A DNA stretch of 36,652 bases, taken from the sequence record SRR31156797_2820; one strand, 5' to 3'. The position numbers were made by a program, and so were the translations under genes. Positions 28,201-36,652 of the stretch are shown piece by piece (positions within the stretch are counted from its first letter, which is position 1; every line of letters begins with the position of its first letter). The notes beneath the pieces were generated by a model, which saw only the letters and a program-made list of their open reading frames with translations, ran no database searches and had not been told where the DNA came from.

Positions 28201-31200
28201 ATGTTCTACGAAATATTCAGATTCGAAATAAAACGAGCTTTAAGTCGACCTGCAGTCTACATCTACTGGGCTATTCTCTTCCTGATCGCATTTGCCATTG
28301 TAAATGCTGCCGGTGGAGCCATTGATGGAATCAACATCCAATTTGCTGGTGATAATGTTTACATCAATGCACCCGGAGTTGTTGATATCTTCTTGGGTAC
28401 TTTCTCCTACCTGGGCATCTTTCTGGTAGCTGCCATTTGCGCCAGTGTAGTTCTGAAAGATTACCAGTACAACACACTGGAACTAATGTACAGCACTCCA
28501 TTGCAAAAGGGAAATTATTTGTTTGGTCGATTTACTGCGGCTTATGTCCTAAGTATTTTTGCTTTTACCGGTGCAGGTATAGGTTTTTATATTGGCAGTT
28601 TGATGCCCTATTTAAATCAGTCCTATATGGGACCCAATGAGTGGGCGACCTATATCCATCCTTATTTGACTCGCATCCTTCCAAATGTATTCTTTGTAAG
28701 TGCAATATTTTTCTCCCTAAGCATCCTCTTGCGCAATGCTGTAGTGAACTGGATTTCCATTCTTGCACTCTATATTCTATACGGAGTAGCTATGAGTCTT
28801 TTCAGAGATTTGGAAAGTCAAACACTGGCATCTCTTCTTGATCCCTTTGGAATTGCTGCATCTTTAAAAGTGACCACAGGCAACTCCGCCTCTGACATGA
28901 ATGAAACCGGAGCTACACTTCAAAATGTATTTCTTTACAACAGGATGCTTTGGGTAGGCTTAGGAGTCCTATTGATTGCATTCACATATTTTCGTTTCAG
29001 ATTGGTTTACAATCTGCGTCATTTTCAACTGCTAAAGAAAAAGAATACTGAGGCTGAAAGCCAGACAAATGATGAACATATCATTACCAAATTACCAGAA
29101 GTGTCTCAAGTTCAGAATACTTTGCAAAGTCTATGGCAATTGACTCGTTTCGAAACCCGAAAACTTTTTGGAAGTGCCTATTTCTGGTTGATCTCCTTAA
29201 TTGTTGTCATCTTCTTATTCGTGGCATCAAAAGGCATAGGTAAAATATACGATACCAATACCTATCCGGTGACTTACCAGGTGCTACAAATATTTGGGGG
29301 TAGCATTCAACTGTTTATTTTTATCATTGTCCTCTTATTTTCTGGTGAAATGATATGGCGCGATCGTGATAAAAAAGTTCATGAAATATTCCAAACCTAT
29401 CCGCTTCCTCGTTGGATAAGTCTGGCAAGTAAATTCATAGCCCTAATAAGTGGAATAGCATTCATTAAATTACTATTGATTATCTGTGGCGTAATCGTTC
29501 AGAGTATGGCAGGATACTATAAATATGAATTGTCCTTGTATTTTATATCTGAATTTGGCATCAACTTCGTGGATACATTTCTACTAATGGCATTGGCATT
29601 CCTGGTTCATATCGTAGTCAACAACAAATATCTTGGCTATGTACTTATTGTTCTTTATTGGGTTTTAGACCAATATTTTGCCAGTCTAATTTTAAAGCAT
29701 CCTTTGCTAATTTACGGTTCTGGTCCACATGTTAGCTATTCTGATATGAATGGATATGGCTTTGAGCTCCTTCCTTACTGGATATTTAAATTCTATTGGT
29801 TGCTTATTGCAGGAGTCTTGATCGTTTTTGCCAACCAGTTATTGGTAAGTCAGACCGAAAACGATTGGCGCACCCGTTTTGAACTAATGAAACAACGATT
29901 TACAGGAAATGCCAGCAAAGGTATTCTTGCTTTAGGAATTGCTACTCTTCTAATGGGATCTTACATTTTTTACAATACCAATATCAAAGGCGATTTTCAA
30001 ACCCCTTATCAGAGAGAGCTGGAAACTGTGCGCTATGAGAAAGAGTACAAAAAGTATGAGAACATTCAACAACCTAAAATAACAGATGTTTTACTACAAG
30101 CAGATCTTTATCCTGAGAGTGGAGATTTTTATGCTAATGGTACATTTACCATGCAAAACCTGAGTTCTTCTCCAATTGATCTGATCTATATCAACTCAAA
30201 TAAATTTATTCAAAGTTTGGAACTGGATCAAAAGGCAGAGCTAATTACTAGCGACGAGGAGTTGCACATTAAAATATATCAGCTGTCGCAGGCATTACAG
30301 CCAAATGAGAGACTAAAGTTAGATTTTTCTTTTGAAGGAATGAATGATGGATTTACCTTGAAAGGCGCCAATAATATTTGCCAAAAGAACGGGACATTCC
30401 TATACAATTCTCTCTTCCCCTCGATTGGATACAAAGCAGATGGAGAACTGACAGACAAGAGAACCCGAGAAAAACACAATCTGCCTGAACGTGAAATTGT
30501 AAGAAGCATTGACGATTCCAAAGGAATACAGCAACATTTTATCTCCAATGATTCACATTTCATCAACTTTGAGGCTGTAGTTAGTACTTCTGCCGATCAA
30601 ACAGCTTTAACACCGGGAAAATTGCTAAAATCCTGGCAAGAAGAAGGCAGAAATTATTTCCATTACAAATCGGAACATCCAATGATCAATTACTATGCTA
30701 TTCTATCGGGAAAATACGAAGTGAAAACAGATCAATGGAAAGATGAGAACGGCAAATTGGTGGATTTAAGCATCTATTATCACAAAGGACATGAGTACAA
30801 TTTGGATAACATGATGAATGGGATTAAAATTTCATTGGGCACCTATACCCAATGCTATTCGCCTTATCAGTTCGACCAGCTAAGAATTGTTGAGTTCCCA
30901 AGGTATTCCAGCTATGCCCAATCCTTCCCCAACATGATTCCTTTCTCGGAAGGCATTGGTTTTATTGCTGATTTAAGAGAATTAAATAAGGAAGATGTAA
31001 GCAATGATCAAAAGATTATGGATTACCCATTCTTTGTAACGGCACACGAAATGGCGCATCAGTGGTGGGCGCACCAGGTAGCGGCAGCAGATGTGGAAGG
31101 ATCACAAATGTTAATGGAATCTATCACACAGTACAGTGCTCTGCAATGCATGAAAACCTATTTCGATAAGGAGAGAATGAATAAGTTCTTTAAAAACGAG

Positions 31201-31824
31201 CTGTTCAGATATGTAAGCTCCAGAAAGAATGAAGAACGCGGAGAAAGACCTTTGGCAAGAGTTGCTCCCTACCAACAGAGTACTTACTATCAGAAAGGTG
31301 CTTTAGCAATGAATGCACTTGGCAACTATTTGGGCGAAGACAAGTTTATGAATGTATTGAGTGGTTTTTTAAAAGATTACGCATTTAAGGGAGCTCCTTA
31401 CCCTACAAGTCAAGATCTGATTGACCGAATAAAATCGGAAACACCCGACAGTTTGCAATACTTTGTGGAAGATGTTCTGGAAAAAATCACCCTTTACAAA
31501 ACCAATATCGACTCGCTTAGTTACACACGAAACAAGGATTTTACCTATACCGTTGATGCTATTATCGACATAGAAAAATACTATGTGAACGAAAAGGGTG
31601 AGGAAAGCATAACAGATTGCAACGATTATATTGGTGTAGGTGCATTTAACTCTAAAAACAAAGAGCTTTACAACCAAAAAATAAAATTAAAATCAGGTAA
31701 AAATAAAATACAATTTAGAGTAAAACGAAAACCAAATACGCTCCTGGTCGATCCGGATTACATGATTGTAACCAAAGATTGGATGCGCGAGCCATCAGAA
31801 ATAGATAAAAAGAAAAAAGTATAA
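28201..31824 (+). CDS. ABC-2-type permease fused to an M1-family metallopeptidase domain
   Basis: Duplicated multi-TM permease (about aa 1-590), followed by a soluble domain with HEMAHQWW...ESITQY and YYQKG. Confidence 0.88.
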   Translation: MFYEIFRFEIKRALSRPAVYIYWAILFLIAFAIVNAAGGAIDGINIQFAGDNVYINAPGVVDIFLGTFSYLGIFLVAAICASVVLKDYQYNTLELMYSTPLQKGNYLFGRFTAAYVLSIFAFTGAGIGFYIGSLMPYLNQSYMGPNEWATYIHPYLTRILPNVFFVSAIFFSLSILLRNAVVNWISILALYILYGVAMSLFRDLESQTLASLLDPFGIAASLKVTTGNSASDMNETGATLQNVFLYNRMLWVGLGVLLIAFTYFRFRLVYNLRHFQLLKKKNTEAESQTNDEHIITKLPEVSQVQNTLQSLWQLTRFETRKLFGSAYFWLISLIVVIFLFVASKGIGKIYDTNTYPVTYQVLQIFGGSIQLFIFIIVLLFSGEMIWRDRDKKVHEIFQTYPLPRWISLASKFIALISGIAFIKLLLIICGVIVQSMAGYYKYELSLYFISEFGINFVDTFLLMALAFLVHIVVNNKYLGYVLIVLYWVLDQYFASLILKHPLLIYGSGPHVSYSDMNGYGFELLPYWIFKFYWLLIAGVLIVFANQLLVSQTENDWRTRFELMKQRFTGNASKGILALGIATLLMGSYIFYNTNIKGDFQTPYQRELETVRYEKEYKKYENIQQPKITDVLLQADLYPESGDFYANGTFTMQNLSSSPIDLIYINSNKFIQSLELDQKAELITSDEELHIKIYQLSQALQPNERLKLDFSFEGMNDGFTLKGANNICQKNGTFLYNSLFPSIGYKADGELTDKRTREKHNLPEREIVRSIDDSKGIQQHFISNDSHFINFEAVVSTSADQTALTPGKLLKSWQEEGRNYFHYKSEHPMINYYAILSGKYEVKTDQWKDENGKLVDLSIYYHKGHEYNLDNMMNGIKISLGTYTQCYSPYQFDQLRIVEFPRYSSYAQSFPNMIPFSEGIGFIADLRELNKEDVSNDQKIMDYPFFVTAHEMAHQWWAHQVAAADVEGSQMLMESITQYSALQCMKTYFDKERMNKFFKNELFRYVSSRKNEERGERPLARVAPYQQSTYYQKGALAMNALGNYLGEDKFMNVLSGFLKDYAFKGAPYPTSQDLIDRIKSETPDSLQYFVEDVLEKITLYKTNIDSLSYTRNKDFTYTVDAIIDIEKYYVNEKGEESITDCNDYIGVGAFNSKNKELYNQKIKLKSGKNKIQFRVKRKPNTLLVDPDYMIVTKDWMREPSEIDKKKKV

Positions 31825-31835
31825 ATAACAATTGG

Positions 31836-31873
31836 TGAGGACTTCCATTAAAAAGGGAGTCCTCATTTTCTTT
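31836..31873 (+). terminator. Rho-independent terminator
   Basis: TGAGGACTTCC...GGGAGTCCTCA followed by TTTTCTTT. Confidence 0.8.
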
Positions 31874-32006
31874 CAGCTCAATTTTCCTGAAACAATCTTA
31901 GCCTTCCTCCCAAAGAAATCTAAACCAATATCACTACTATTGTATTGGAACGATTTATTCTGTACAATCACCCCATACAAATTTCAATCTTTATCACCCA
32001 TTAATT

Positions 32007-32072
32007 TGACTCCTTCGGAGTCAGATGCTTATAGCTGATATTATCTATAAACAGACGACCCTAAATGGGTCG
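32007..32072. repeat. Inverted doublet of REP-like hairpins
   Basis: TGACTCC-TTC-GGAGTCA-GATGCTTATAG ... CTATAAACAGA-CGACCC-TAAAT-GGGTCG: two hairpin-plus-tail units facing each other. Confidence 0.5.
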
Positions 32073-32160
32073 AATCTATTCTATTATTGATCAGCATGTA
32101 AAAATTATGTATTTTCGATTCCCCGGTACAATGAACTGTTGATTTGGAAGAGAGTGTAAA

Positions 32161-32733
32161 ATGAAACAACTGATACAAGACATAAAAAAATGCAGAATTT
32201 GCGAATCGAGTTTGCCTCTAGATCCCAAACCCATTTTTACTGCTCATTCTAAAAGTAAAATTGTAATCATAGGTCAGGCACCAGGATTGGCTGCCCACAA
32301 CACCGGAATTCCCTGGGATGATAAGAGTGGTGAAAATTTAAAGAAATGGATGGGAATTGATGATGCCACCTTCTACGACCCTGAAAAGATTGCTTTAATT
32401 CCCATGGGCTTTTGTTATCCCGGAAGGGGAAAGTCGGGAGATATTCCACCACGAAAAGAGTGTGCCCCACAATGGCACAAGCTACTTTTAAATCAACTAA
32501 ACAAAGTGGAATTGATCGTATTAATAGGAAAGCATGCGCAAGATTATTACCTAAGAGAACAAGTAAAAAAGAACCTGACCATAAGGGTTGAAAATTACAA
32601 AAGCTATTTGCCCAAATACTTTGTTCTGCCCCACCCATCGCCACGAAATAACATTTGGATGGCAAAAAATGAATGGTTTATAAAGGAAGTGATTCCTGCA
32701 TTACAATTAAAAATACAAGACATACTTAAATAA
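32161..32733 (+). CDS. Uracil-DNA glycosylase superfamily protein
   Basis: CRIC, IIGQAPG, PWDDKSG, FCYPG and LPHPSPRN motifs. Confidence 0.9.
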   Translation: MKQLIQDIKKCRICESSLPLDPKPIFTAHSKSKIVIIGQAPGLAAHNTGIPWDDKSGENLKKWMGIDDATFYDPEKIALIPMGFCYPGRGKSGDIPPRKECAPQWHKLLLNQLNKVELIVLIGKHAQDYYLREQVKKNLTIRVENYKSYLPKYFVLPHPSPRNNIWMAKNEWFIKEVIPALQLKIQDILK

Positions 32734-32751
32734 CAAACTCAAATCCATAAA

Positions 32752-33549
32752 ATGAAATTGAAAACAAAACTTCTTCTTCTGGCACTTCTCCTAAATGCCT
32801 CGGTACATGCTCAATCGAAATCAGATGGCAATAAAATTGTAAAAGTTCTTAGTTTTAACATACTGCATGGGGCTACTACAAAAGGAGATTTTAATTTAGA
32901 TGTAATTGCAAAGGTGATAAAAGATGCAGATGCCGATTTTGTAGCCATGCAAGAGGTAGATTTTAAAACCCAAAGAGCTAAAAAATATGACTTAACTACA
33001 GAACTGGCCTACCGAACAAAAATGATTCCTCTGTTTGCCAGAGCCATGCATTACGATGGTGGCGAATATGGGGAAGGAATACTATCGAAACACACATTTT
33101 TAAGCACGCGAAATCTTGCTCTACCCTATTCGCCAGGCAATGAACCTCGTTCTGCCTTGGAAATTGTTTGTACCCTTGATTCCAATGATACCATTGCATT
33201 TATAGGTACTCACCTCGATCATTTAGATGATGAAACCGATCGCCTTTCTCAAGCAAAAAAAATAAATGAACGATTCAAAGCCAATGCCTATCCAACTATT
33301 TTGGCAGGAGATTTAAATGCCGTTCCCGGAAGTGCCACCATAAACACTTTGGAGGAAATGTGGACGGCGAGTTACGATAAGGAACATGTGGAATTCACTT
33401 ATCCATCGGGCACACCTAATCAGAAAATCGACTATGTACTATTTTATCCGAAGAACAGATGGAAAGTATTGAAAACTCAGGTGATTAATGATACCATAGC
33501 CTCTGATCATTGTGCTTATTTGGTAACGCTTGAACTTCTCGATGAGTAA
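32752..33549 (+). CDS. Secreted endonuclease/exonuclease/phosphatase (EEP) family protein
   Basis: Signal peptide; SFNI, MQEVD, THLD, LAGDLN, IDY and SDH motifs. Confidence 0.92.
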   Translation: MKLKTKLLLLALLLNASVHAQSKSDGNKIVKVLSFNILHGATTKGDFNLDVIAKVIKDADADFVAMQEVDFKTQRAKKYDLTTELAYRTKMIPLFARAMHYDGGEYGEGILSKHTFLSTRNLALPYSPGNEPRSALEIVCTLDSNDTIAFIGTHLDHLDDETDRLSQAKKINERFKANAYPTILAGDLNAVPGSATINTLEEMWTASYDKEHVEFTYPSGTPNQKIDYVLFYPKNRWKVLKTQVINDTIASDHCAYLVTLELLDE

Positions 33550-33818
33550 GTTACTATTGTAGGGAATAAATCGGGAAAAGGAATTGTTAAAACTACTCAA
33601 TACTACTACTGATTATGCTGATGAAGCAGTTATTGCCATAAAGAAATTGTTAAAGCAAAATTACGAGTAGATTATAGGTTTAGAATTGCATAGCAAGTTC
33701 TCATTTGTTAGCTTTACAAAACAATGGCTCCATTGTCTTTCGCGGCATGTGTAAAATAGTTTACAGACATTTGACACACATGCATTAAAAGATCAACAGA
33801 GCACATTGTTACTTAGTG

Positions 33819-33858
33819 ATAGTGAATCTTTGGGATTACATGCCCATGGGTTCACTAT
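33819..33858 (-). terminator. Hairpin overlapping the stop codon of the 241-aa gene
   Basis: ATAGTGAATC-TTTGGG...CCCATG-GGTTCACTAT imperfect inverted repeat. No clear U tract. Confidence 0.4.
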
Positions 33859-34580
33859 TCATTTTCAACAACTTCACTTTCAACTTCTGCTTCAGGTTCA
33901 CCCTTCAGGTATCGGTATTCGAAACCATAAGTTCGCATTATTCTACGTTGATTCGATTCTGTTTCCTTTCTTAAGGCAAATTGCAAATGATCCGCAATAT
34001 CCTTTATTAATATATCAACCGGAATACGCATACTACTCACTTCCTTCTGAAAGATATTATAGCTACGATCTGCAGGAGCAATGTCATCCCTCTCCTTCTG
34101 TGCTACTAATAACTTCCCTTCCACTTCAGCAGCGCTAGGATTTTCCATGGCAGGATAAGAATTGGCAACCAGACTAGCATCACCCTTTACAATATGAGTT
34201 GCAGCAGCCAAAATCTCCTTCTCATTGTTTAGATTCGGAATATCACCCGATAATGGTAAACCCAGTTTGGTAAACACTTCAGCAGGCTGATCTAATCGAA
34301 TGGCTCTACGTTTTGCTACAACCCAAAAATCGCGGACGTAAACATGCAAAATGTCTACACTTTGATTCTTTTCGCGAACTTCCTTTTCTTTATCCGATAA
34401 ACTGGTTTTAAGTTTTTCAAATAAAAGGTTAAATTCAGGCTTCAATCGTAATAACTCACTAACTACCAACTCTGGCAGATAAATAACACCAAGCTCTTTG
34501 TCTTTTTCTGTGGTGTTTGAGCACTGATTTAAAAAATCATTTCTTTTCAAATCAGATTTAGGATATTCCAAGTATGGCAT
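33855..34580 (-). CDS. Hypothetical alpha-helical protein
   Basis: 241-aa ORF with heptad-like helices. MPY..P..D start, NPS motif and YG..Y.Y..GE end recall, from memory, an uncharacterised Bacteroidota family. Confidence 0.75.
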   Translation of the reverse strand: MPYLEYPKSDLKRNDFLNQCSNTTEKDKELGVIYLPELVVSELLRLKPEFNLLFEKLKTSLSDKEKEVREKNQSVDILHVYVRDFWVVAKRRAIRLDQPAEVFTKLGLPLSGDIPNLNNEKEILAAATHIVKGDASLVANSYPAMENPSAAEVEGKLLVAQKERDDIAPADRSYNIFQKEVSSMRIPVDILIKDIADHLQFALRKETESNQRRIMRTYGFEYRYLKGEPEAEVESEVVENE

Positions 34581-34740
34581 ATCTTTAATTTTATTGGTTA
34601 AACAATTGGAGTAAATTCTATACTCCCTTACTATTTCACACTTAAATGATGTATGTTAACATCGAAAATTTCACTTTACAAGTTTCAGAAATACAATTGG
34701 CTATAAAAAGTGCTTATTCCTGGTGTAGAAAATCAACTAT

Positions 34741-34978
34741 CAGAAAACTGGGAAGACATTTTCGGTGCCGGAAACTCATCACCAGAAAACTGGAGAGGCA
34801 TTTTCGGGACCGGAAACCCACCATCAGAAAACTGGGAAGGCATTTTCGGGACCGGAAATACATCACCAGAAAACTGGGAGGCCATTTTCAGTGCCGGAAA
34901 CACTTCGCAGGAAAATACGAAAGGTATTTTCGGTGTCGGAAACACATCGCGGGAAAATTCAAAGAGTACCTTTAGAGC
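34741..34978. repeat. 42-bp tandem repeat array, 5 full units plus a degenerate partial
   Basis: Units start at 34741, 34783, 34825, 34867, 34909 and 34951. Consensus CAGAAAACTGGGAAGGCATTTTCGGTGCCGGAAACACATCAC. Confidence 0.95.
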
Positions 34979-35495
34979 TTTATTGGCAGGGCTTACAGTC
35001 GTTTTCTGTATATAATTCCTAAAAAAAGCTTTATCAAATTGTAAAGCTACATTTGCTTTTAGCGAAAAAGAATACGCCTTTGAAAAAATTTTGTTGATCA
35101 ACTTGAATTAATGCCAGCTGATTCACAGTACAAATTAAAGTGTAGTTTCATATTTGTTGATATTGATGATTAGTCCTATCCCCTCTTTTCAACAAATGAT
35201 TTCTTCGAAATCTAGATTTAAGTTAAGAAATGCTTTTAATTCTACAAAACACTTTTCTTATTTTTTTGTTCATATCATGCTCTACCTCTTGAAAATACAG
35301 GCATAGTTTTACAATTTTTTTTATGATTTCTTTTTTCGATAAGCAGTAATAATTAAAAATTTACATTATTTATATCTAAAACGCAGAAGAATCTTATTTT
35401 AAGGTGATTTGTAATTTTAATTAAGGATAACAAGCAATTATTTTGTTTACTGATTTAGCTTTTGTAATTTCATGAACATTATTCCTGTAAAGTAA

Positions 35496-36626
35496 ATGGG
35501 CACACAAATAAAACTATCATCGGATCATCATAAAGGCAAGAAAGTTGTTTTGTTGCAGTTTGAGTACAATTCTCAAATTGTAAACTTATTAAAGCAGCAT
35601 TTTCCTGTCCGTTGGAGCCAAACAAAAAAATGCTGGTGGATTGCCAGACGGGAGTTTGATTTTAAGAGATTTAAGGAAGTCTTCTCTCCTATTTGTGACA
35701 TTCAATTTAGTAAGAAACAAAATAAAGAAGAAATTAAAATTCAAAAACAAACACTCCCTGAAAATTATCTTGAAAAGTTAATTCGAGTTAGATATAGTGA
35801 AAGTACGATAAAAACATACACTTCGTATTTTAACGATTTTCAATCTGCTTTTTCGGAGAGTAATATTGATGAACTAGGCCCTAATGATATTAACAAATAT
35901 ATTCTTACTCTAATAAATAGAAATAAGATTTCGGTAAGTCAACAAAATCAACGAATAAATGCTATAAAATTTTATTACGAGAAAGTGTTAGGTAAAACAA
36001 AGCAATTTTATGAAATTGATAGACCTAAAAAAGGTCGGGTTTTACCAAAAGTTATTTCAGAAGAAGAGGTTCTTGGTATGCTAAAAGTAACTACAAACCT
36101 TAAGCATAAAGCCATATTAGCAACTATATATTCAGCAGGTTTACGAAGAGGTGAACTTATCAGGTTAAGAAAAATAGATGTCTGGTTTGATAAAAAATTG
36201 ATTTTTATAAAAGCTGGAAAAGGAAAAAAAGATAGAACCACAATATTATCTGATTCACTAATATTGGTATTAGATAAATATTTAAAGAAATTTAAACCGA
36301 ATTATTATTTGTTTGAAGGTAAAAATAGAACAAAATACAATCCATCTACCATTGTTAAGATTGTTGCTAAAGCCGGAGAGATAGCAAAAGTAACTCAACA
36401 TGTTACTCCTCATATGTTGAGACATTCATTTGCTACACATTTATTAGAACAAGGAACAGATTTGCGTTACATACAAACTATATTAGGACATGATTCAAGT
36501 AAAACAACAGAGATTTACACCCACGTGAGTAAAAAATCTCTTGCAAAAATAAAAAGTCCATTAGACGTAATCTTAACGGACAACACGAAGAATAACAACA
36601 ACTTACTAAAACCAACGGATAAGTGA
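35496..36626 (+). CDS. Tyrosine recombinase/integrase, integron-integrase-like but without the IntI insertion
   Basis: SAM-like YSESTIKTY and SQQNQRINAIKFYY; LPKV; YSAGLRRGE (R); GKGKKDR (K); HMLRHSFATHLLE (HxxR); LGH; TTEIYTHV (Y). Confidence 0.93.
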   Translation: MGTQIKLSSDHHKGKKVVLLQFEYNSQIVNLLKQHFPVRWSQTKKCWWIARREFDFKRFKEVFSPICDIQFSKKQNKEEIKIQKQTLPENYLEKLIRVRYSESTIKTYTSYFNDFQSAFSESNIDELGPNDINKYILTLINRNKISVSQQNQRINAIKFYYEKVLGKTKQFYEIDRPKKGRVLPKVISEEEVLGMLKVTTNLKHKAILATIYSAGLRRGELIRLRKIDVWFDKKLIFIKAGKGKKDRTTILSDSLILVLDKYLKKFKPNYYLFEGKNRTKYNPSTIVKIVAKAGEIAKVTQHVTPHMLRHSFATHLLEQGTDLRYIQTILGHDSSKTTEIYTHVSKKSLAKIKSPLDVILTDNTKNNNNLLKPTDK

Positions 36627-36652
36627 TATAAGTTGCATTGCAACATACACAA

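Follow-up and report, generated by a model that had tools for sequence, protein, structure and literature searches.

Introduction

In the sopC locus of plasmid F, 12 direct repeats of 43 bp each carry a 16-bp inverted repeat that is bound by SopB, the product of the neighboring gene (PMC3177203). In type III toxin-antitoxin systems, the antitoxin is a repeat RNA (PMC8860590 and PMC12283969), which neutralizes the protein encoded next to it. The toxI repeats are located before toxN. Tandem repeats of 41 nt occur in the 464/PgRS elements of Porphyromonas gingivalis, which resemble miniature inverted-repeat transposable elements (MITEs); the available excerpt of PMC4596501 does not state a link between them and a gene family. 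The subject of the present study is a tandem array of 42-bp palindromic units in a stretch of 36,652 nucleotides from sequence record SRR31156797_2820 (hereafter the window, meaning this whole stretch), which is located upstream of a minus-strand gene encoding an all-helical protein of 241 amino acids (aa).

The repeat units of type III systems are similar in length to the present units, a terminator is placed between the repeat array and the toxin gene, and the toxin folds are unlike the acidic helical 241-aa protein. TIGR-Tas systems combine a Nop-domain protein with units that contain hypervariable spacer segments.

The array in the window is real and non-coding; its linkage to the gene, its period and its position are conserved across phyla, and its orientation is free. 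The explanation that we favor, tentatively and at a little below an even chance, is that the array is a platform of phased dyad-symmetric sites in double-stranded DNA (dsDNA), to be read by the neighboring protein, which would thereby regulate the promoter of its own gene and a few further loci.

Structure of the array

Tandem Repeats Finder (TRF) detected a single long-period array in the window at 34741–34948 (period 42, 5.0 copies, 79% matches, score 234), and a repeat search of the window recovered four overlapping copies of 102 nt, which are spaced by 42 nt and share 74–80% identity. In the unit register, the core array consists of five 42-bp units at 34739–34948, which on the gene strand occupy 34948–34907, 34906–34865, 34864–34823, 34822–34781, and 34780–34739. 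The row after the last full unit is a decayed gene-proximal unit at approximately 34697–34738, in which part of the first dyad is kept, and the row before the first full unit is a decayed distal unit at approximately 34949–34990. The first-pass annotation had counted five and a half units; the array itself is confirmed by both searches, but it is better described as five units with decayed ends, and the faint unit that had been noticed at about 34699–34740 corresponds to the decayed gene-proximal one. The GC content of the array is 47–51%, compared with 27–33% in the flanks, which agrees with the GC-richness noticed at first. The gap between the array and the ATG at 34580 was measured as 160 bp, the distance that had been estimated.

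On the gene strand, each unit is arranged as a 16-bp dyad (7+2+7), a 7-nt C-rich spacer, a 12-bp dyad, and a second 7-nt spacer. In the window, six of the seven arm positions of the 16-bp dyad pair, and the two dyad centers within a unit are 21 bp apart. The second dyad common to the relatives is the 12-bp element CCAGTTTTCTGG (gene strand), whose center is 21 bp from the first, and paired dyad centers at 21 bp were also found at the homologous loci L006, L010, L017, L019, L023, and L045. Two overlapping inverted repeats had been proposed for every unit; the repeat TTTTCGG-NN-CCGGAAA is present with the arm match given above, but the GAAAA...TTTTC pairing is not conserved in the relatives.

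The near-identical locus L001 has a self-identity of 0.82 at a lag of 42, compared with at most 0.44 in shuffles. All five strains of the window's species retain five units, and one of them, L072, has a 10-nt insertion inside the last unit. A more complex arrangement was observed in Marinifilum breve and M. flexuosum (L003, L004, L161, and L184), where super-periods of 85 or 127 bp are formed by two or three alternating unit types, in which one motif is constant and the second palindrome varies.

Linkage between the array and the gene

An array of period 41–43 within 900 bp upstream of the gene was detected by TRF in 25 of 51 genome loci. In an autocorrelation analysis over lags 30–59, which was applied to the genome loci with at least 250 nt of upstream DNA (n = 47) and in which chance would account for about 10%, the best lag was 41–43 in 36 of the 47 loci, 35 of which exceeded five shuffles. 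The metagenome loci with at least 300 nt of upstream DNA gave the same best lag in 54 of 63 cases; 53 passed the shuffle margin, and four of those with this best lag are near-copies of the window. In the set of 65 non-redundant arrays, the period is 42 in 50 arrays, 41 in 13, and 43 in two, and the copy number has a median of 3.9 and ranges from 1.9 to 10.2. The distance from the array to the start codon has a median of 159 bp with quartiles of 123 and 226 bp, and it falls between 50 and 300 bp in 55 of the 65 arrays.

The array-bearing homologs span records of Bacteroidota, Chloroflexota, Verrucomicrobiota, and Acidobacteriota, and the unit sequences are wholly different between lineages. Within a lineage the units can be nearly uniform, as in the L010 array, where unit-to-unit identity is 96% and spacer-like segments are absent, and the gene and the array are syntenic among Marinifilum species. 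The first-pass annotation had stated that its proposal would fall if homologs generally lacked upstream arrays; most of them carry a 41–43-bp array 50–300 bp upstream. No neighboring gene is conserved in addition: besides the family itself, which was found in 47 loci, every protein cluster is confined to 4 of the 51 loci at most.

Away from the family genes, only three arrays of period 41–43 were found within the 51 loci. These are located at L029 (2151–2468), L032 (1610–1799), and L035 (770–955) in Verrucomicrobiota, where the family gene has no proximal array; they have periods of 41–42 bp, are 3.5–5 kb from the family gene, and neighbor a 556-aa open reading frame (ORF) without a Pfam match, a GntR-type regulator, and a VWA protein.

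Tandem arrays can also arise as selfish or neutral minisatellites, for which the 464/PgRS repeats are a model, or as copy-number contingency loci without a dedicated reader. Such an origin would be in line with the published 41-nt tandem repeats in MITE-like elements (PMC4596501), with the presence of related arrays at several loci per genome, and with the range of copy numbers from 1.9 to 10.2 and the indel in one strain. However, the gene linkage, the period, and the distance persist across phyla despite the turnover of the sequence, which would not be the case for neutral repeats; furthermore, no recurrent inverted-repeat pair was seen flanking the array in the six loci examined, the five strains keep five units, and the gene and array remain syntenic in Marinifilum. 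We regard a minisatellite or contingency locus as very improbable.

Several frames are open in the window. Three plus-strand and two minus-strand frames are open across the array, and the plus-strand ORF at 34710–35015 has a low-complexity sequence below the cut-off as its sole Pfam match. Among the 65 arrays, nine are closed in all six frames and 14 have just one open frame. Coding is refuted by the 41- and 43-bp periods, which occur in 15 of the 65 arrays. Together with the nine fully closed arrays and the 10-nt insertion in L072, these periods bear out the earlier view that the array is not an ordinary translated repeat. It is thus hardly credible that the array encodes a 14-residue repeat peptide through this ORF. 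The same grade applies to the companion proposal that it serves the neighboring integrase as a recombination site: a gene for an Xer-like or integron-like tyrosine recombinase does lie 550 bp off, but no recombinase is conserved beside the homologs, and the point at which homology between the strains breaks, 35665, falls within the integrase gene, some 700 bp away from the array.

The proposal that the array and the helical protein form a dedicated, undescribed module is supported by this linkage and by the exclusion of coding. Full-text literature searches, which covered new families of type III systems, palindromic repeats of 42 bp, phased repeats of Bacteroidetes, and DUF6261, yielded no description of the gene-array rule, nor of the DUF6261 arrays considered below. 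Within the literature searched, neither the rule nor the protein family appears to have been described.

The 241-aa protein and its family

The 241-aa protein is encoded at 33855–34580 on the minus strand and belongs to an unnamed family. The AlphaFold2 model, built on an alignment of 21 relatives, is confident (pLDDT 87) and all-helical, with helices at residues 10–29, 37–95, 120–139, 150–165, 167–202, and 208–218, of which 37–95 forms a long central helix. The model also contains short N- and C-terminal strands and a disordered acidic tail. Conserved arginine and basic clusters at residues 83–95 and 204–216 are located at one end of the model.

The protein has no Pfam family at E up to 0.1, no match among PHROG, NCBIfam, and PADLOC families, and nothing among PDB sequence profiles. 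The fold searches returned generic helical bundles and no specific fold: the best E value was 0.06 in the Foldseek search of the PDB and 0.008 in BFVD, and the best Z score of the wide VIA-align search was 8.5, to BAR and four-helix bundles. The ESM Atlas returned unnamed Bacteroidota clusters and a weak lead to DUF6261 (0.88). This lead was not upheld, as none of 98 members matches PF19775 at E up to 1 and the hhalign probability is 0.2–0.45%.

The family is large: with clustering at 50% identity, 1160 clusters match at an E value of at most 0.001, and 765 still do so at 1e-10. Its named records come from Marinifilum, Labilibaculum, Ancylomarina, Chloroflexota, Verrucomicrobiota, Acidobacteriota, and one Deltaproteobacteria metagenome-assembled genome (MAG). 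In Bacteroidota it is rare and patchy, with 7 of 301 genomes sampled being positive, and it is absent from 72,556 plasmid records and from the phage collection searched with tblastn. One Acidobacteriota assembly (L041–L051) contains about ten divergent copies with 25–28% identity to the window protein, several of which have 41-bp arrays around a GCCCGGGC palindrome. The complete Marinifilum genome G002 has three family paralogs, and isolated TCTGAAATTTCAGA-type palindromes were seen upstream of one that has no array.

DNA- or RNA-level function of the array

The first-pass annotation had offered phased binding sites and a structured leader RNA as two possible roles. The orientation of the array bears on this choice. 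The L019 unit fits the asymmetric spacers of L010, L017, L104, and L106 only as the reverse complement, and the array is upstream of the gene in all five loci alike. Among the 65 arrays, the gene strand is C-rich in 45 and G-rich in 17. The orientation of the array relative to the gene is free, and a flip of this kind means that any asymmetric parts of an RNA would be replaced by their complement.

The mismatches in the stems were counted next. G·U-type mismatches numbered 68 and A·C-type mismatches 51 (p = 0.14), and by array the comparison was 17 versus 16 with 21 ties. At first, the window, L020, and L045 had suggested G·U wobble on the G-rich strand, but this was not borne out by the counts, which were 28 versus 25 and then 57 versus 62. 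Folding of whole arrays on both strands tracked G-richness only and was replaced by the local stem counts. Pairing near the center was counted in 30 consensus units with perfect outer stems; at d = 2, beside the 2-nt center, Watson-Crick pairs occur in 14 of the 30 units, compared with a fraction of 0.24 in shuffles, and at d = 1 in 11 of 30, compared with 0.25, which is not clearly above chance. The loop of the typical 7+2+7 site is too small for a hairpin, and some dyads have a 0-nt center.

Contigs from RNA libraries (four runs) cover parts of the gene, 34466–34660, 34893–35070, and 34986–35201, and leave the array interior uncovered; as such contigs carry no information on strand or ends and the assembly of repeats is poor, nothing is drawn from this gap.

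If the array acted as RNA, its hairpin repeats would bind the protein, in the manner of a type III toxin-antitoxin system, a sponge, or an autoregulating 5′ leader. Several observations are in line with this: the array precedes the protein gene as toxI precedes toxN, two hairpins are possible in every unit, a stem-loop stands between the array and the gene and is followed by a T-run in L007–L009, L028, and L045, differing palindromes within one array stay self-complementary, and library contigs are present beyond the array at 34893–35070 and 34986–35201. The patchy, multi-copy distribution of the family, with about ten copies in the one Acidobacteriota assembly, would also suit a defence or addiction module. 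On the other hand, the orientation flips among related lineages, neither strand shows a G·U versus A·C asymmetry, and many dyads have a 2-nt or 0-nt center. The median gap of 159 bp with an intervening −10-like box (described below) is ill-suited to a tight operon; moreover, ToxN, CptN, TenpN, and PADLOC searches gave no match, Rfam gave nothing, and the protein is acidic and helical. An RNA-level function is accordingly judged unlikely. Of the two roles first offered, the orientation flip, the missing G·U bias, and the pairing at d = 2 lean toward phased sites and away from a leader RNA, and neither is proven.

Region between the array and the gene

A short box, GTTAACATA on the gene strand (34652–34660, minus), recurs as GTTAAATA in the leaders of Marinifilaceae, which were compared by eye. 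The box may be located at or near a promoter or transcript start; a one-sample RNA-library contig ends at 34660, which is a very weak hint in this direction. Closer to the gene, a stem-loop with 6-bp arms and a 7-nt loop was found at 34608–34626 (minus) as a terminator-like match, 27 nt before the ATG. Most of the 29 folded leaders have a hairpin 25–45 nt before the start codon, with z scores of −2 to −3 in six Bacteroidota leaders; its position is kept among the relatives, and the arm sequences vary by locus. A T-run follows it in the five loci named above. These stem-loops are taken from single-sequence folds, and RNAalifold gave no consensus structure for 12 leaders on a MAFFT alignment, in which the stems were misaligned.

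In leaders of the Chloroflexota type, a −10-like box between the array and the leader stem-loop was found in 7 of 55 cases, compared with 1.06 expected, at 24–57 bp past the array and 55–116 bp ahead of the start codon. This position places the array upstream of the promoter. For the window region, a sigma-70 scan remained at chance (7 found, 6.0 expected), and no Bacteroidota −33/−7 promoter could be placed by eye. No Rfam match was obtained over 31000–36652 at E up to 1.

On the other side of the array, about 70 bp beyond its distal end, a 7-bp stem with an 8-nt loop is present at 35021–35048 (minus), with six T after it on the gene strand and an A-run before it. It has only two G-C pairs and was missed by the terminator scan; from its sequence, it looks like a bidirectional terminator.

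Additional arrays in the same genomes

The genome of each relative was searched with its own primary array. Additional arrays with related units were found in G002 (one), G003 (two), G006 (two), G007 (one), and G008 (three); G004 has two and a shorter single match, and G005 has no additional array. Each genome has one to four arrays per unit type. No family paralog is located beside any additional array, and the flanking genes are ordinary (S41 peptidase/ThrE, epimerase/FMN dehydrogenase, fmt, mnmA, and rhodanese/HemN). In Ancylomarina longa (L157, 1318–1694) and Marinifilum breve (L163, 1458–1726), a 42/84-bp array lies between OsmC-like and AhpC/TSA peroxiredoxin genes, about 230–270 bp upstream of the AhpC/TSA gene, and its units resemble those of the primary array of the same genome.

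The similarity between arrays is larger within a genome than between genomes, being 77 versus at most 47 for G002 and 75 versus at most 65 for G007. A lineage-specific reader would produce such a pattern, in which likeness within a genome exceeds that between genomes. The 241-aa gene is the only gene that is linked to the arrays throughout.

Arrays of a similar period are also associated with a second protein family. DUF6261 (PF19775) is present in 10–18 copies per genome in four Marinifilaceae genomes, and 7 of the 12 DUF6261 loci examined (L167–L178) have their own 40–42-bp tandem array 115–290 bp upstream.

These observations raise the possibility that the array is a DNA control element read by an unlinked regulator, or by supercoiling through cruciform-prone phased palindromes, with the 241-aa gene as its target. 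The acidic 241-aa protein, which lacks a DNA-binding family or fold, would fit such a role, as would the orphan arrays beside ordinary genes (OsmC/AhpC, ThrE, and fmt). The same-period arrays before DUF6261, an unrelated-looking family in the same genomes, could reflect a shared array-reading machinery. However, the units are specific to locus and lineage, and yet within one genome those of the secondary arrays match those of the primary array. This combination calls for a fast-evolving specific reader, and the 241-aa gene is the sole link across phyla. A structural sensor, for its part, would not require the conserved asymmetric spacers that are shared by L010, L017, L104, and L106. We consider a separate reader improbable.

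Proposed mechanism and its significance

In the favored explanation, that of a phased dyad-site platform in dsDNA, four points are inferences: the identity of the binder as the 241-aa protein, the binding of DNA rather than RNA, a dimeric mode of binding, and transcriptional control as the result. The gene product would bind the dyad sites of the adjacent array, and each 42-bp unit would offer two dyad-symmetric sites separated by 21 bp, which is two helical turns. Since the centers are two turns apart, all sites would be located on one face of the helix. Dimers could then assemble cooperatively on the array, giving a single nucleoprotein complex immediately ahead of the promoter of the gene, and this complex would set the expression of the 241-aa gene, which is autoregulation. 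Where a genome has further arrays of this unit type, the protein would act there as well. This explanation draws on the linkage and geometry of the arrays, on their free orientation, the missing G·U bias, and the pairing at d = 2, on the related arrays elsewhere in the genomes and the lack of any other linked gene, on the −10-like box of the Chloroflexota-type leaders, and on the confident protein model with its conserved arginine clusters at one end.

Several results weigh against this mechanism. The protein is acidic, with a pI of 4.8–5.5 in 21 of the 21 members examined, which is odd for a DNA-coating protein, and profile and fold searches found no DNA-binding motif, fold, or family. In each collection, genome and metagenome, 10–11 loci are without an array, and two of the three G002 paralogs (L186 and L187) have no TRF-detectable array. 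In M. breve and M. flexuosum, where unit types alternate, one type has retained only one half of the first dyad, so that strict dimer symmetry is not universal. Second-dyad sequences can differ within one array with self-complementarity being kept; self-complementarity itself could thus be what is selected, as in RNA or in cruciform DNA. The contigs beyond the array (34893–35201) mean that transcription through the array may occur, and the promoter was placed by consensus matches alone.

A wider proposal is that the 241-aa protein founds a new class of sequence-specific readers of nucleic acids, helical bundles without a known DNA-binding motif that polymerize on phased dyads at a private and fast-evolving set of loci (the promoter of the gene itself and a few others), and that together with the DUF6261 proteins, which are unrelated to it in sequence, it forms a widespread, hitherto unrecognized layer of genome control by arrays and readers from Bacteroidota to Acidobacteriota. 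This is possible, though we hold it to be doubtful.

The present results describe a large family without a name, a domain, or a structural relative, which is paired with a cis element of very precise geometry, and this geometry outlasts a complete turnover of the sequence in at least four phyla. Both partners of the putative interaction are in hand at once, which opens the function to direct tests. Should the protein prove to read the array, it would represent a new DNA-recognition fold and a new way of building operators, from two dyads that alternate at intervals of two helical turns. Otherwise, a general machinery for reading arrays, common to these loci and the DUF6261 loci, would still have to be discovered.

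Neighboring features in the window

The integrase gene next to the array is located at 35496–36626 on the plus strand. The first-pass annotation had placed the array and gene beside an integrase; the integrase is real, but it is not part of the module, since no neighboring gene is conserved and the strains carry another allele, and its presence is therefore incidental. The related strains L001 and L071–L074 match the window at 96–98% up to 35665 and diverge from there onward; over the gene and the array, the shared DNA of such strains amounts to 96–99%. Of the first 58 residues of the alternative allele, 57 are the same as in the window, whereas identity over the full length is 58%. The integrase gene is thus a mosaic, and its breakpoint falls some 170 nt into the ORF.

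On the other side of the 241-aa gene, the interval up to an exo/endo/phosphatase gene is 137 bp in the window (approximately 33543–33680); in L071–L073 it is occupied by about 1.8 kb with a minus-strand ORF of 536 aa. A 22-bp A-rich tandem repeat of 2.2 copies was detected by TRF at 31677–31725, at the 3′ end of a 1207-aa ORF.

Comparison with known systems

The array resembles sopC in its period (41–43 bp in 65 of 65 arrays), in its typical 16-bp dyad (7+2+7), and in its position beside the gene of the candidate binder. It differs from the sopC/SopB system in that the protein has no ParB/SopB domain, no ParA-type ATPase is a neighbor, and the locus is chromosomal. No ParB was found among the 25 families matched by the most members at E up to 1 when 21 and 98 members were scanned, and a ParA partner is likewise missing among the neighbors, of which no cluster is common to more than 4 of the 51 loci. 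In addition, the array is upstream of the promoter region of the gene, whereas sopC is downstream of its operon, and each unit has a second dyad 21 bp away, with further arrays on the chromosome.

With type III systems, the locus shares a short tandem array just upstream of a single gene and a stem-loop between the two. Unlike toxIN, cptIN, and tenpIN, its orientation is variable (L019 versus L010 and L017; 45 versus 17 arrays) and its gap is longer, and the helical, acidic protein has no homology to ToxN/AbiQ, CptN, or TenpN in Pfam and PADLOC.

The likeness to the iterons of plasmid replicons, which accompany an autoregulated rep gene, is that direct repeats in phase adjoin the gene whose product is presumed to bind them; the difference is that no Rep family and no plasmid or phage collection gave a match. 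The PgRS elements are similar as 41-nt tandem repeats scattered through a Bacteroidota genome, but no recurrent inverted-repeat pair was seen flanking the present arrays in six loci. TIGR-Tas differs in its Nop family protein, to which no match was found, and in its spacers, as arrays of the L010 type have no spacer-like segments.

The layout also resembles that of the DUF6261 loci, which share the period, the upstream position, and palindromes that are specific to each locus. Their protein, of about 250 aa, is helical as well, and its model likewise has a short N-terminal helix followed by a very long helix. No sequence relation between the two families is detectable, and the present family differs in reaching records of Chloroflexota, Verrucomicrobiota, and Acidobacteriota and in being rare in Bacteroidota. 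Overall, the system is a member of none of the families tested, although in the favored explanation it would work like the known operator or centromere arrays.

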